Shown here one piece after another: positions 1-64,000 of a stretch of 64,000 bases of DNA. The stretch lies in the IMG/VR virus record IMGVR_UViG_3300021400_000072; one strand, written 5' to 3'. Source of the DNA: a virus. Under the pieces are notes generated by a model that had not been told where the DNA came from, did not search any database, and saw only the letters and a list, made by a program, of their open reading frames with translations. The position numbers and the translations under genes were made by a program. The first letter of the stretch is position 1. Each line of letters starts with the position of its first letter.

Positions 1-1
1 G

Positions 2-160
2 AATGTTATTAATAATGCTAATAGTTCTACAGAAGGAATGGAGCAAAATATTACTATACATGCGGATTTCCCTAACGTTACCGAAAAATCTTAGATCGAA
101 GCCGCATTTAATAATCTTGTTAATAAAGCAAGTCAATATGCTTTTAGAAATAAGAGATAA
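2..160 (+). CDS. 3' end of an upstream gene (partial), probably virion structural; one in-frame TAG
   Basis: Frame 2 is open from the window edge to TAA at 158-160 (...NVINNANSSTEGMEQNITIHADFPNVTEKS-TAG-IEAAFNNLVNKASQYAFRNKR*). A terminator follows. Confidence 0.4.
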
Positions 161-163
161 TAT

Positions 164-198
164 AAAGGCAAAGATGTAAATTACATCTTTGCCTTTTA
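164..198 (+). terminator. Rho-independent terminator
   Basis: Inverted repeat aaaggcaaagatgta / tacatctttgccttt followed by a T-run. Confidence 0.6.
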
Positions 199-276
199 TT
201 TAAGGGCAATTATTTATAATATTTATTTTTATATTTTTATTATAAAATAATGAGAAAAAAGGAGGTTTTGTTTAAA

Positions 277-3200
277 ATGGGCAGTGAACAATATTCAAAT
301 AGTCTTTTATAGGCTATGTCTATTATTGCTAACAAAGCCGTATCAGACGCTAGCTTTAATAAAACAATTCAAGCGGTGATAGTGGAATGTAAAGATGCGA
401 CGATAGAAAAATATCGTGTGCGCTACCAAGATGGATTTTGGGAAGCGTATGGAAATGGATCAGGAGTAACATATTTGCCAGGAACAAGTGTTTATATTTT
501 AGTTCCAAATGGAGACATGTCTCAACCTAAAACAATAATAGGCACAGTTTAGAAATTGGGAATCAATTATATTAATACTATTTCTGAATAGAATCAATAC
601 TATGAAAACGGAAATAATACTTTAATAAATAATATTGCTCAATTTGAATTATGCTCTTATTAGACACAGACAATTTAGATATATAATAGAAACAAAAAAG
701 AAAATAAAATTAATATAAATGAAGAAGAGACCGCTTTTTATTTACAAACTTCTTCTCATTTAAAATGCTCTTTTAATATAAAGACTTCTTTAGATTTGCA
801 TCAAAGATTTAACGGAAATTATGGAATAAGATTTTATTTAACTTTTTTAGATAGAGCAAGAGAAGAAGAAGTAATAAGATAGTATACGTTTGATACTTAT
901 TTAATGAGCGGAAATCCTTATCTTTTTACAAATAAAGTACCTCAATCTACAGTTTTTGAAATTGATGGTGCTAATTTTTTAAATATAGATAGAATAGAAC
1001 TTTTTACGGAAGGTTTTCCTAAGCAAGCGGAAGGGCATCACCCAGACATTTTTATCTCAAATCTTGCTATTGTTGGAGTAAATCAATTATCTGAATAGGA
1101 AATGAATGGAGTTTCTCTTTCTTTTGTTGCTAAAAAAGGATATATTTTTAATGATACTAGCAGTGATAATGATACTAGAGAAATTCAAGCTATCGTTAGA
1201 GTTCTTGGAAAAACTGTAAATGATACAATTTCTCAAAAGCTATCTTTTTATTGGTTTGTTCAAAATATAAGTATTTCTAAAAGTAGTCCGTTTTATAATA
1301 AATATGGTGGATATGGATGGAAATGTTTAAATCCTTATAAAATTTTAGAGAAAGATGAATATGGTAATATTACATTAGTAGATTTTAATTCAATGGGATC
1401 TATCTTTACTATTGCTAAAGAAGATGTTCAAATTAAATAGCAAAAATATAAATGCGTAGTATTATACGGGAACGAATCTTTTTCTAAAGAATTTACTATT
1501 ATCAATCATAGCGCAAGTTATGAAATATAGATAGAGTCTGACAAAGGAACATAGTTCGTTTTAGACTCTGGTTATCCTAATTTAAAATGTATATTAAAAC
1601 ATAAAGGAGAAGAAGTATCAGTATATAACAACTATGTATTCCATTGGGGAGTAATTAATAATAAAGGAGTTTTTAGTTCTTTACCTTAGACAAATAAATC
1701 ATATTAGGTATGGCACGAAGCAGAAGAAAGGGTTAATAATTTATAGAAACTTTTTAAAGATAATCAAATAATAAAAAATGGTACTTATAAAAATTAGAAT
1801 GGACAAGTAGTAACTAATGAAGAGGCTTATAATGAAGCTAAAGACATTTTATAGAAATATCGAAATACTGAGATAATCCATAGTAATTATATTTACCATG
1901 TTAATATTAAAAAAATTATTAATTTTAGCACTTTTGTTTGTACCGTGTCAGATATTAATTTAAATGTAATTGGATCAAAAGAAATTACTTTAATAAATGA
2001 TTTAACTTCTAACGGCGGGTACTCTTTAATTATTAATAATGGAAAACAGTCTTTTAATTATAATGAACAAGGAATTAGTCCTTGTAAAAATGAAAAAATT
2101 AATTATGTTATTCCAGAATTATCATTTACTCTATTAAACGAAAAAGGTTAGGAAGTAGATCAAAATGAAATTAAACCAGATAATATTAAATGGGTTTTCC
2201 CAGATAAAAATAATAGTCTTTTAATACATCGTGAAAGAGAAAACGAGTAGCGGATTCCGCAAACAGATTATACAATAATATATCCTAAAGCGAGAGTTTT
2301 TACTTATGAGATTTCAGATAAGTATTTTAGTAATAAAAATGATAATGATATAGAATTACGAGTTACATATAATGGATATACATTAACTGCAAAAACAGAT
2401 TTTCTATTTAGTAAATAGGGCTTTTTAGGAACGAATGGAACAGGAACTGTTTTAAGAATTATTCCGTTATTTAATGGAAATCCTATTGATGAACTACCCT
2501 ATTTTAAAATAAATAAAAATAAGAGTGATGATAATATCGTTTGTAATTTTAATGAATTAAAAGCATAGTTATATGAAAACGGATAGTAGGTTTTTGCAGA
2601 AAATGAATCATCTTATATTTGGAGTATTTTAAAACCAAAAGAAACAGATTTTAGTAATTTAAAATTAAAAGCACCTTCTCTTGGGCAAAGAATGTCAGTA
2701 AGTTTTATAGATACTCCTATTGTCAAATAGAAAAATAGTTCTATTTATAATATTGTTAAAGTTTCAGTATTATATAATAATAATAAAATTTATGCTACTC
2801 TTCCGATTATCGTTTATGAAATTTGTTCAACTGGTTATGATGAAGATATTTATGATTTAAAATTAGTTCCAAATACTGGTTTTCAATATGTATTTTATGC
2901 AGAAGATGGTACTAGACCGTAGTATGATAATAAAAATCCTTTTACTTTTAAACTTACTGAAACATCTGCTGAAAGAACTAACGGTAGAGAATAGGATATT
3001 ACAAAAATTCAATTACCAGATTTTGAGCATTCTTTTGAGTATTAGGTAGGAGGCAATTTAACAATTAGAAAAAATTCTGATGATAGCAATATTTGTGATT
3101 TAGTTCCGAATACTACTTATGATGGTTCTATATTAGATAATTATTTAATTTGTAAAGTTAATAAAATAAAACAAGGAGAATTCCCAACAACAGTTGCACA

Positions 3201-62577: not shown

Positions 62578-63164
62578 TCAATATGAAAAAATTGCTTACG
62601 AAGATTTTGCAGGCACTTGGTAATACGGTAAGTAAAACCGGCGATACCATGACAGGAGATTTGCAGATCACGAGAGACGGCATAACGAGCTGTGTAAGAG
62701 TGACAAGTCTTAACGGTAACACAACCGTTGCAGATGGATAGCTTAGTGCAAATACGAGTGGAAATTTTGGTCTTTATGACCAAATTCATGACAAATGGTT
62801 AATCAGAAGTAATAAAAGTGCTAAAGAAATACTTTTTGGTATGCCATTACATATATCTACTATTTATAATACTAAACTTACTGCTCCATCTGCACAAAAT
62901 ACATGGGCAGAAGCCTCTGTTCCAAATATTGCAAACTATAATATTATTCTTATGCGTTGTGAATGTTTTAATTGTCGTCAGTTACTTGTTTTTTGCCGAA
63001 ATTTTGGAACAGGAGCACTGTATTTAACCGATAATGCAAGTACCTATGTAAGAGGTGGATACAGAATTGACTGGACAAATAATAAAGTAGGAGTGCAATG
63101 GTTAAATGGAACTACTACAACTGCTAGCACAGTATATATCCAACAAGTATATGGAATAGTATAA
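62574..63164 (+). CDS. Tail fibre tip protein, about 196 aa; 1 in-frame TAG
   Basis: ATGA overlap with the previous stop. KTGDTMTGDLQI fibre motif. ORF 62841.. is the in-frame C-terminal piece. Confidence 0.6.
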
Positions 63165-63182
63165 AAGAAATGAGGTGATATA

Positions 63183-63935
63183 ATGTTAACTCCAAAACAA
63201 TTATTAGTAATCATGTATCAATTCAGAGGCGCTAATGCAAAAAAAAATGTAAAAAAGACATATAATGATTATGCAGAAAAACATAAAAAATCTAAGGTAT
63301 CAAGTAATTCTGCGTGGTGTTCTGAAACAATTGCGGCCTCTTTTATTAAAGCAGGTGCTCTTGGACTTATTGGCGGTCTTGCCAGACAATCAGATACTTT
63401 TGTAAAACATTTTAAAGCAATAGGCATTTGGAAAGCAGGACATGACAGGATTCCTAAAGTAGGTGACATTCTTATTCGTGGTAAAAACAATGACCCTTAT
63501 CACAGTGAAGTTGTGTTTTCGGTTGATGAAAAGAAAGGTACGCTTAAAGCAGTTTCTGGCAATTATCTTGGAAATGTCGGTATTAGAACTAGAAACATTC
63601 ATGACAAACTTACTTATGGATATGGAAGTCCCAAATATGACGCTTATAAAACTGTGACTCCTTCTATCGTACAAAAAGTAATGATGGGGTTATATGGCAA
63701 GGGTGCTACTATCGGTACTGCCAGATATAACAAACTTGCACTTGAAGGTTATGATCCTGATGCTGTACAAGCTAAAATTAATTGGGTTGTTAATACAGCA
63801 CAAGCTATTAAAGACGGTAAAGAATGGGCTAAGGAGCATTATGGGAATGATGAAAAACGTAAAAAGGCACTTGGTTCTTGGTACCCTATAGTACAAAAAC
63901 AAATCAATGTATTATACGGAATTGATAAATGGTAA
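63183..63935 (+). CDS. CHAP-domain peptidoglycan hydrolase (tail-associated lysin), 250 aa
   Basis: AWCSETIAASF (Cys), GDILIRG...YHSEVVF (His). Located in the tail module. Confidence 0.7.
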   Translation: MLTPKQLLVIMYQFRGANAKKNVKKTYNDYAEKHKKSKVSSNSAWCSETIAASFIKAGALGLIGGLARQSDTFVKHFKAIGIWKAGHDRIPKVGDILIRGKNNDPYHSEVVFSVDEKKGTLKAVSGNYLGNVGIRTRNIHDKLTYGYGSPKYDAYKTVTPSIVQKVMMGLYGKGATIGTARYNKLALEGYDPDAVQAKINWVVNTAQAIKDGKEWAKEHYGNDEKRKKALGSWYPIVQKQINVLYGIDKW

Positions 63936-63955
63936 TTAAATGAGGTGAATAAACA

Positions 63956-64000
63956 TGGCAAATAATGATAATATTATTTATGCTAAATTTAATCATGGTC
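63956..64000 (+). CDS. 5' end of the next gene (partial)
   Basis: RBS AAATGAGGTGAATAAAC-ATG. MANNDNIIYAKFNHG... Confidence 0.3.

Follow-up and report, generated by a model that had tools for sequence, protein, structure and literature searches.

Probable reading of the amber codon as glutamate in a gut or rumen phage, through a suppressor tRNA of tRNA-Glu(CUC) type

Here we report on a 64,000-nucleotide stretch of phage DNA (IMG/VR record IMGVR_UViG_3300021400_000072), hereafter "the window," in which TAG, the amber codon, is read as sense in about half of the genes and very probably specifies Glu, not Gln, being read by a phage-encoded tRNA(CUA) of the tRNA-Glu(CUC) type. The window corresponds to positions 30,831-94,830 of a 143,040-bp European Nucleotide Archive contig and has a G+C content of 30.9%; two independent public assemblies carry a sequence identical to it. 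Its source is a tailed phage of ~143 kb from gut or rumen metagenomes, for which the host is probably a Clostridia bacterium, Lachnospiraceae-like in nature; the GH25-CHAP-GW architecture of the endolysin suggests that this host is Gram positive, and the label of one source assembly (SHIW14) hints at a study of sheep rumen. Phages with recoded stop codons are already known as a class, and the original prediction for this DNA had recognized their signature and read TAG as most likely Gln. Membership in the class is borne out by our analysis; as for what is new, the best-supported reading is that amber is decoded as Glu, via a suppressor apparently derived from tRNA-Glu(CUC).

That TAG is a sense codon in this stop-codon-recoded phage is fully supported. 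When genes were called with TAA and TGA as the sole stops (greedy choice of nonoverlapping open reading frames [ORFs] of at least 50 amino acids), fragments fused into 56 genes that tile 95.7% of the window. Within these, 184 in-frame TAGs are spread over 30 genes on both strands versus not one in-frame TAA or TGA, even though the same genes' two off-frames contain TAA 2.5 times as often as TAG (2,192 versus 870 occurrences). TAA terminates 42 of the 56 genes and TGA the other 14, with none of the 26 TAG-free genes ending in TAG. The pattern originally described, i.e., frames interrupted by TAG alone on either strand and closed by TAA or TGA, is thus reproduced, although the count of at least 35 TAG-bearing genes given with it was too high: we find 30, or ~26-27 without g22, g26, g09, and g10, in which every TAG precedes an alternative ATG. 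The tail-fibre-like gene g02 (250-4932, plus strand; 1,560 amino acids, against 1,551 in the public call) is a single ORF with 29 TAGs, and the fibre-gene pieces earlier noted at 316, 904, 1102, 1945, 3364, and 4000 all share its frame. Pfam domains run end to end over TAGs, as expected by the original prediction, in the dUTPase (20-152), NrdD (85-639), the RecJ-like protein (DHH and RecJ_OB), the endolysin (GH25, CHAP, and GW), the guanylate kinase, and the AAA_24 ATPase. Near relatives retain the TAGs themselves (37 of 37 at 97% nucleotide identity, 8 of 9 at 89%). Gene tiling, the imbalance between TAG and the other stops, domain continuity, conservation in relatives, and the identical assemblies together establish the sense reading, and the phage also displays further hallmarks of amber-sense phages: TAG goes unused as a terminator, a tRNA(CUA) is encoded, and a subset of genes avoids the codon.

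To assign an amino acid, TAG was translated as X, and window proteins were aligned to the ORFs of related IMG/VR loci, of which 64 were sampled; a scan of the RecJ region covered 61 relatives at 42-97% identity. Likelihoods were computed under a substitution model built from the same alignments. Opposite TAG in three relatives (L008, L009, and L010, at 71%, 66%, and 48% identity, respectively, for query protein g48), the 127 aligned residues included 49 E, 12 S, 9 T, 8 D, 8 K, and 6 Q. The pooled log likelihood (lnL) was -297 for E, -384 for D, and -403 for Q, with Glu the maximum-likelihood meaning in each of the three loci by a margin of >20 lnL. A table tallied codon by codon recovered the standard amino acid for every sense codon; the fraction aligning with E was 0.39 for TAG, 0.51 for GAA, and 0.49 for GAG, versus 0.06 for CAA, while for CAG, E lay outside the top three aligned residues.

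Approximately 34 of the 61 RecJ-region relatives carry no in-frame TAG of their own and were therefore taken to use the standard code. Across every relative in this region, window TAG columns hold E at 35-50% and Q at 0-10%. When a conserved column is defined as one with at least 70% of a single residue in at least eight standard-code relatives, 10 of the 14 conserved columns under TAG are Glu and none is Gln, contrary to the expectation that TAG columns would fall on Gln-rich positions. Four of the 10 Glu columns are invariant. In the guanylate kinase (g14; 11710-12279, minus strand; PF00625; 3 TAGs), the TAG at 12133-12135 occupies the invariant Glu of the RPxGE motif, which is E in 12 of 12 standard-code relatives. 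In the AAA_24 ATPase (g24; 23867-24853, minus strand; PF13479; 4 TAGs), the TAGs at 24476 and 24713 stand opposite E in 28 of 28 and 27 of 27 such relatives. The GIY-YIG protein (g27; 26688-27644, minus strand; GIY-YIG Pfam match on record) has the densest TAG use in the window (22 in 318 codons, or 6.9 per 100), concentrated in its N-terminal coiled coil; its TAG at 27165 aligns with E in 15 of 15 standard-code relatives and that at 26787 in 15 of 18. In the RecJ-like DHH exonuclease (g20; 18491-20278, minus strand; Pfam DHH, DHHA1, and RecJ_OB; 11 TAGs), TAG columns are E in 32 of 34, 28 of 34, 23 of 25, and 19 of 25 standard-code relatives, the first being near invariant. One site in RecJ is an exception to the Glu pattern: at residue 120, four close relatives have TGG (Trp) opposite TAG, and many distant relatives have Tyr.

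The examples from which Gln was originally argued are themselves Glu columns. In the dUTPase (g06; 7471-7935, minus strand; PF00692, E = 1e-25; 3-4 TAGs), the TAG of motif III (DYRG-TAG-IKV) had been placed on a conserved Gln; L010, the closest standard-code relative, has DYRG-E there, and the five best solved-structure alignments give E, E, E, T, and T, from structures that are few and variable. Structures aligned for GH25 were likewise few and too variable. The guanylate kinase site (RPY-TAG-ADG) and those in the RuvC-like resolvase (g05; 6893-7375, minus strand; 4 TAGs; weak Pfam RuvC match at E = 0.007, below the gathering score) had been called compatible with Gln or Glu; L010 shows E, D, and E at the RuvC sites, and the kinase column is the invariant Glu above. 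All four TAGs of the neighboring small gene g07 (7910-8173, minus strand) lie opposite Glu in L010. In the anaerobic ribonucleotide reductase NrdD (g12; 9508-11460, minus strand; 5 TAGs, spanned by PF13597 at E = 7e-90), TAG stands opposite GAA at three sites in L016. This relative is 85% identical to the window, and 19 of the 22 TAG sites changed in it are Glu; in close relatives generally, TAG alternates mainly with GAA. TAG columns of the tail and baseplate block also align with Glu in L008, L009, and L010.

Codon balance points the same way. GAA and GAG together make up 5.84% of codons in TAG-bearing genes versus 7.00% in TAG-free genes, and TAG, at 1.79%, fills the gap, amounting to 23.5% of Glu-type codons in the genes that carry it. 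CAA plus CAG, for which a depletion would be expected were TAG to mean Gln, shows none in TAG-bearing genes (3.19%, versus 2.99% in TAG-free genes). As a positive control, relatives were classified by their own TAGs: L067, L068, and L069 returned Q (0.43-0.53), while the window and 24 other loci returned E. Given these Gln calls, and the lack of Glu enrichment in phage phAss-1 (discussed below), the pipeline is able to report Gln and has no built-in bias toward Glu.

A suppressor of the matching kind is encoded by the same genome. ARAGORN found no tRNA in the window or in the replication-module loci; however, relatives place a tRNA array upstream of a DUF2828 gene, right of the window. Locus L117, identical to the window over their overlap, represents the phage's own genome in that direction, and its array of 25 tRNAs includes the CUA-anticodon tRNA that the original prediction had suggested seeking (L117 6011-6083; window coordinate ~77,833-77,905, minus strand; 13.9 kb right of the window). 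Rfam's tRNA model covers this tRNA from end to end at 55.6 bits, and it parses as GGCCCGG UG GUCAAACGGUUUAAGAC G CUGGU CUCUAAA ACCAG AAAU CGGAG UUCGAUU CUCCG GCGGGCU A73, with no encoded CCA. Its A73 is shared with 11 of 12 tRNA-Glu from phage arrays, versus G73 in 15 of 15 tRNA-Gln, and most phage-array tRNA-Glu have a D-arm of 16-18 nucleotides of the form GUC...GAC, which is shorter in tRNA-Gln. We built isotype hidden Markov models (HMMs) from phage-array tRNAs with the anticodon masked (leave-one-out accuracy, 12 of 13 for Glu and 13 of 15 for Gln); against these, the tRNA(CUA) scored 37.3 bits for Glu, 27.4 for Cys, and 21.0 for Gln, and Glu was also the top isotype for the tRNA(CUA) of relatives L078, L079, and L081. 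The phage's own tRNA-Gln(UUG) is clearly different. Whole-sequence identity to phage tRNAs was dropped as an isotype test, as it failed to discriminate isotypes.

The origin of this tRNA was examined by scanning one genome per bacterial species with its D-arm motif, GGUCAARCGGUU(N)AAGACG. Among the matches listed (the first 120), the motif occurred only in tRNA-Glu(CUC) (117 of 117 tRNAs), and nearly all of these were from Clostridia, e.g., Lachnospiraceae, Butyrivibrio, and Roseburia. The best bacterial matches listed are 77% identical to the phage tRNA(CUA), and 20 bacterial tRNA-Glu(CUC) among them have in common with it both the G1-U72 pair and A73. The anticodon loops (CUCUAAA in the phage, CUCUCAC in bacteria) differ at positions 36 and 38; C36A by itself is enough to convert a tRNA that reads GAG to one that reads UAG. 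By its sequence, then, the tRNA(CUA) body is that of a clostridial tRNA-Glu(CUC), with an anticodon one base off.

The tRNA arrays hold further features of their own. ARAGORN assigns the tRNA at L117 9354-9427 a four-base anticodon (gcat), which would mean an anticodon loop of 8 nucleotides; such a tRNA occupies the same array position in four genomes (the others being L075 1002-1077, L076 1013-1088, and L113 8210-8283) and could be frameshift-suppressor-like or a misparsed Cys or Met tRNA. Transfer-messenger RNA (tmRNA) genes lie beside tRNA(CUA) in the arrays of L081 (2485-2739) and L102 (6949-7258), with the tags ANEYQMAA and ADYSAYKMAA; a phage tmRNA may bear on the handling of ribosomes stalled at unsuppressed TAGs. 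Lastly, CUA tRNAs of 91-95 nucleotides at L111 4535-4629 and L012 12442-12532 (the latter being phAss-1) contain, past the anticodon stem, a long insertion that is either an intron or an extended variable arm, and they resemble neither the Glu-like nor the Gln-like suppressors.

Certain observations weigh against a Glu assignment. In the closest relatives, ~7 TAG sites align with Gln, a minority next to the ~25 that align with Glu, and right of the window, L075 and L076 gave Q slightly above E, in calls made noisy by spurious antisense ORFs and Q-rich proteins in a less conserved region. The divergent tRNA(CUA) of one close relative, L113, scores higher as Cys (28.8 bits) than as Glu (23.5). 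Position 36 is normally among the identity elements for glutamyl-tRNA synthetase (GluRS), and charging of a CUA anticodon is assumed here; a dedicated synthetase or release factor may sit in the remaining ~49 kb of the genome. On one strand, genes with and without TAG are intermixed, which simple early and late operons would not lead one to expect. Amino acid identity is also deduced throughout from evolution and from the tRNA itself.

A rival reading is mixed decoding, in which Glu-tRNA(CUA) is partly amidated by GatCAB, or competes with release factor 1 and near-cognate tRNAs, so that TAG yields Glu in some products, Gln in others, and truncation in still others. The weak first pair of the tRNA, G1-U72, is also present in the phage's own tRNA-Gln, a minor Gln signal exists at TAG sites of close relatives, and among recorded Pfam hits, no release-factor or synthetase gene was present for genes at window coordinates 2,453-83,916 (~81 kb). 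However, the combination of G1-U72 and A73 is found in bona fide bacterial tRNA-Glu(CUC), and TAG occupies invariant, probably functional Glu positions of several enzymes, where mostly Glu would therefore be required. We thus regard such a mixture as improbable.

Less probable still, and in our estimation a long shot, is code 15, whereby TAG would be Gln via an amber suppressor of tRNA-Gln descent, the situation in crAss-like and Lak phages and in phAss-1. The literature searched describes no other amber reassignment in phages, distant members of the family do have TAG columns on Q and a Gln-like tRNA(CUA) (G73 and an encoded CCA), and a few window TAG sites lie opposite Q in close relatives. 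Set against this, Glu lies far above Gln at TAG columns across all 64 relatives, conserved columns under TAG favor Glu by 10 to 0, CAA and CAG codons align with E at only 0-6%, CAA plus CAG is undepleted in TAG-bearing genes, and the phage's own tRNA(CUA) is Glu-type, unlike its tRNA-Gln(UUG). Neither mark of code 15, namely TAG aligned with Gln and a suppressor of tRNA-Gln identity, is seen here. The formal possibility that TAG is undecoded, i.e., that the frames are pseudogenes, assembly or sequencing artefacts, or short genes separated by plain stops, has only the lack of a tRNA inside the window to recommend it and is already refuted by the 184 in-frame TAGs versus 0 TAA or TGA, the two independent assemblies with the same sequence, the retention of TAGs across relatives with domains continuous over them, and the cognate tRNA(CUA) in the genome.

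Under the Glu assignment, the following mechanism can be envisaged. Host GluRS would charge the tRNA(CUA) with Glu, a non-discriminating GluRS presumably already tolerating variation at position 36, and the Glu-type body of the tRNA would prevent amidation to Gln by GatCAB. TAG-free genes would be translated early in infection by unmodified host machinery; TAG-bearing genes (tail, endolysin, RecJ, GIY-YIG, NrdD, and others) would yield full-length products only after the suppressor tRNA has accumulated. The outcome would be temporal control along with insulation, as has been proposed for Gln-recoded phages.

TAG use is strongly bimodal across the window, a property missed by the original prediction: 10,261 codons in 30 genes hold all 184 TAGs, while 10,141 codons in 26 genes hold none (Fisher p = 3e-57). 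The TAG-bearing class comprises tail and baseplate genes, the endolysin, RecJ, GIY-YIG, NrdD/NrdG, dUTPase, guanylate kinase, RuvC, and AAA_24, with the TAG-free class comprising DNA polymerase III alpha (Pol III alpha), a superfamily 1 (SF1) helicase, primase, YorH, ligase, GyrA, GyrB, holin, RNA ligase, a kinase, a phosphoesterase, a major-vault-protein (MVP)-like protein, and the tail/host-range genes g53 and g54. Avoidance in the core replication genes is conserved. The YorL-type Pol III alpha (g15; 12453-16388, minus strand; 1,311 amino acids; Pfam) has no TAG, an outcome with P = 6e-11 had it used TAG as often as the TAG-bearing genes do, and 10 recoded relatives have 0 TAGs over 12,305 aligned residues. 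Likewise without TAG are the SF1 helicase (g18; 16926-18098, minus strand; Pfam; 0 in 8,208 residues of 21 recoded relatives), the primase (g21; 20362-21513, minus strand; PHROG 47; 0 in 7,957 residues of 21 recoded relatives), and the NAD-dependent DNA ligase, GyrA, and GyrB (g30, g32, and g36; within 28281-35512, minus strand; Pfam), the ligase having 0 TAGs in 4,297 residues of recoded relatives. RecJ orthologues in relatives of the Glu clade have 276 TAGs in 13,617 residues, and GIY-YIG orthologues in recoded relatives keep their high density (209 TAGs in 4,135 residues).

Recent horizontal transfer as the source of the TAG-free replication genes was rejected, since these are no closer to standard-code relatives than are TAG-bearing genes and their avoidance is conserved, which favors selection instead. 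The selective cause is most simply a need for translation before the suppressor acts, which would fit with early expression. Transfer remains plausible only for g53, g54, and the MVP-like gene. The first two (53856-62577, plus strand) encode proteins of 839 and 2,051 amino acids, the latter with PblB-type receptor-binding similarity; these tail/host-range genes lack TAG within a late block otherwise rich in it. Their G+C content is higher (0.34-0.37), and for g54, P(0 TAG) = 1e-16. Immediately beyond the right edge of the window, fibre genes with collagen repeats (L005 10773-15514) are also TAG-free and of higher G+C content, suggesting that all of these are host-range cassettes exchanged with standard-code phages. 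As a separate observation, the 833-amino acid protein encoded at 41124-43625 (minus strand) contains MVP domains (MVP_shoulder, 3.6e-21, and Vault_3), which are unusual in a phage. Its gene is TAG-free, has a G+C content of 0.385, and uses CAG 26 times versus CAA once, the reverse of the remaining genome; the protein matched no PHROG family, and the gene looks to have been recently acquired from a foreign source.

Within the family to which the window belongs, standard-code, TAG=Gln, and TAG=Glu members are all represented, so that a single phage family displays three code states. The Gln-recoding branch is seen in the RecJ region of L067, L068, and L069, and Gln-like tRNA(CUA) with G73 and an encoded CCA occur in the arrays of L085, L090, L096-L100, and L102-L105, loci that classify as TAG=Gln. 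The two branches partition their genes into the same TAG-free and TAG-bearing classes, and RecJ and GIY-YIG are recoded in both, at different sites; they share no TAG positions. In a neighbor-joining tree of RecJ, Glu recoders fall in one large clade with a few standard-code lineages nested in it, whereas the Gln recoders branch off elsewhere, surrounded by standard-code lineages. This suggests that the Glu and Gln assignments arose independently, a single-gene neighbor-joining tree being weak evidence on the matter. Putting the above together, we consider it likely that a broad clade of gut and rumen Clostridia phages (at least 25 of the 64 loci sampled) possesses a natural code listed so far for neither viruses nor prokaryotes, TAG=Glu with TAA and TGA as stops, acquired through C36A in tRNA-Glu(CUC) and independent of the TAG=Gln branch, with host GluRS tolerating A36 and the tRNA escaping GatCAB.

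Other TAG-bearing genes complete the picture. On the plus strand, g04 (5157-6845; 5 TAGs) encodes a tail fibre with a Peptidase_S74 chaperone domain (PF13884, E = 8e-13), and a tail/baseplate block at 44390-53835 includes g47, g48, g49, g50, and g52, with 18, 20, 5, 14, and 6 TAGs, respectively, and the interspersed g51 with none; g48 and g52 match PHROG tail families. At the end of g47 (47252-47257), TAG is directly followed by TAA, either as a tandem stop effective with or without the suppressor or as a C-terminal Glu codon. On the minus strand are an NrdG-like activase (g11; 9035-9511; 1 TAG), a small gene, g33, among the ligase and gyrase genes (28281-35512; 3 TAGs), and the Pfam-supported GH25-CHAP-GW endolysin (g38; 35949-37418; 7 TAGs); in the endolysin region, 8 of 9 TAGs are kept in L002, which is 89% identical.

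The replication module is SPbeta-like, with a YorL-type Pol III alpha, YorF, YorH, AAA_24, DnaB, primase, gyrase, and NAD-ligase; PF07733, PF27337, PF26927, and PF13479 are all present. Its nearest cultured relatives are the SPbeta-like Bacillus phages and Enterococcus phages EF1 and VRE9, on the basis of Pol III alpha (39% identity to SPbeta YorL by tblastn), YorF, YorH, and AAA_24. These phages use the standard code, whereas the phage studied here recodes TAG; for EF1, no recoding was reported (PMC10607447). The nearest recoded phage described so far is phAss-1 of the proposed Phassvirus group (OQ749652; PMC10607447), which shares a genome size of ~136-143 kb, Pol III alpha, NrdD/NrdG, dUTPase, a large tRNA array with a tRNA-Sup(CTA), TAG in ~28% of ORFs, kinship to EF1 and SPbeta-like phages, and a predicted Clostridia host. 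However, shared proteins are only ~22-37% identical, the window has no megablast match to OQ749652, and genus-level similarity or synteny with Phassvirus is absent; phAss-1 was thus rejected as a close relative and is a distant one only. Its authors infer TAG=Gln (PMC10607447), at least one of its suppressors is clearly Gln-like, with G73 and CCA (L012 12536), and its TAG columns show no Glu enrichment, a signal of low power.

More broadly, the phage resembles the TAG-to-Gln phages (crAss-like, Lak, and the Garnet, Jade, Sapphire, and Amethyst phages of Borges et al.) in that amber is sense in part of the genome with TAA and TGA as terminators, a tRNA(CUA) forms part of a tRNA array, the host is presumably a standard-code bacterium, and the recoded codon is kept out of replication genes but abundant in those for lysis and structure. 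It differs from them in the meaning assigned to TAG (Glu) and in the apparent descent of its suppressor from tRNA-Glu(CUC) and not tRNA-Gln, as well as in its gene arrangement: recoded and non-recoded genes are interleaved singly here, versus in large blocks there. Outside viruses, two eukaryotic nuclear codes, 30 in peritrich ciliates and 31 in Blastocrithidia, read both TAG and TAA as Glu; these codes are cellular and genome-wide, and UAG is decoded by a tRNA-Glu with a mutated anticodon. The phage would share with them the reading of UAG as Glu by an anticodon-mutated tRNA-Glu, yet here TAA, which closes 42 of 56 genes, is the main terminator and is never found in frame, and the code is virus-borne, gene-selective, and imposed on a standard-code host. 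In the literature searched, only TAG=Gln was reported among phage amber recodings and no amber-to-Glu, though coverage of that search was incomplete and an earlier description is possible. Borges et al. describe only TAG to Gln and TGA to Trp where phage code differs from that of the host, and Crisci et al. put the odd alignment with E in Lak down to substitution by a chemically similar residue. When 213 phage suppressor tRNAs were screened in Escherichia coli extract, Gln was inserted in 28 of 29 cases and Ala in one, with a putative pair involving tyrosyl-tRNA synthetase also tested. Phage reannotation tools use table 15, and NCBI has a "Caudoviricetes code 15 clade."

The rule in the field so far has been that amber is Gln and opal is Trp, with gene callers and databases fixed to table 15. 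If TAG is indeed Glu, translation by that table is wrong at each TAG, i.e., at 184 residues in the window, including invariant glutamates of enzymes, and public table-15 annotations of the clade would put Gln at real Glu residues, catalytic ones included. The tRNA(CUA) would also provide synthetic biology with a natural scaffold for a Glu-inserting amber suppressor. The strict and conserved avoidance of TAG in core replication genes offers a clean system for the idea that a code change acts as a timer. Ultimately, were the Glu assignment true, GluRS would join the glutaminyl- and tryptophanyl-tRNA synthetases among host enzymes open to co-option, and one phage family would have reached two amber assignments through two tRNA lineages.

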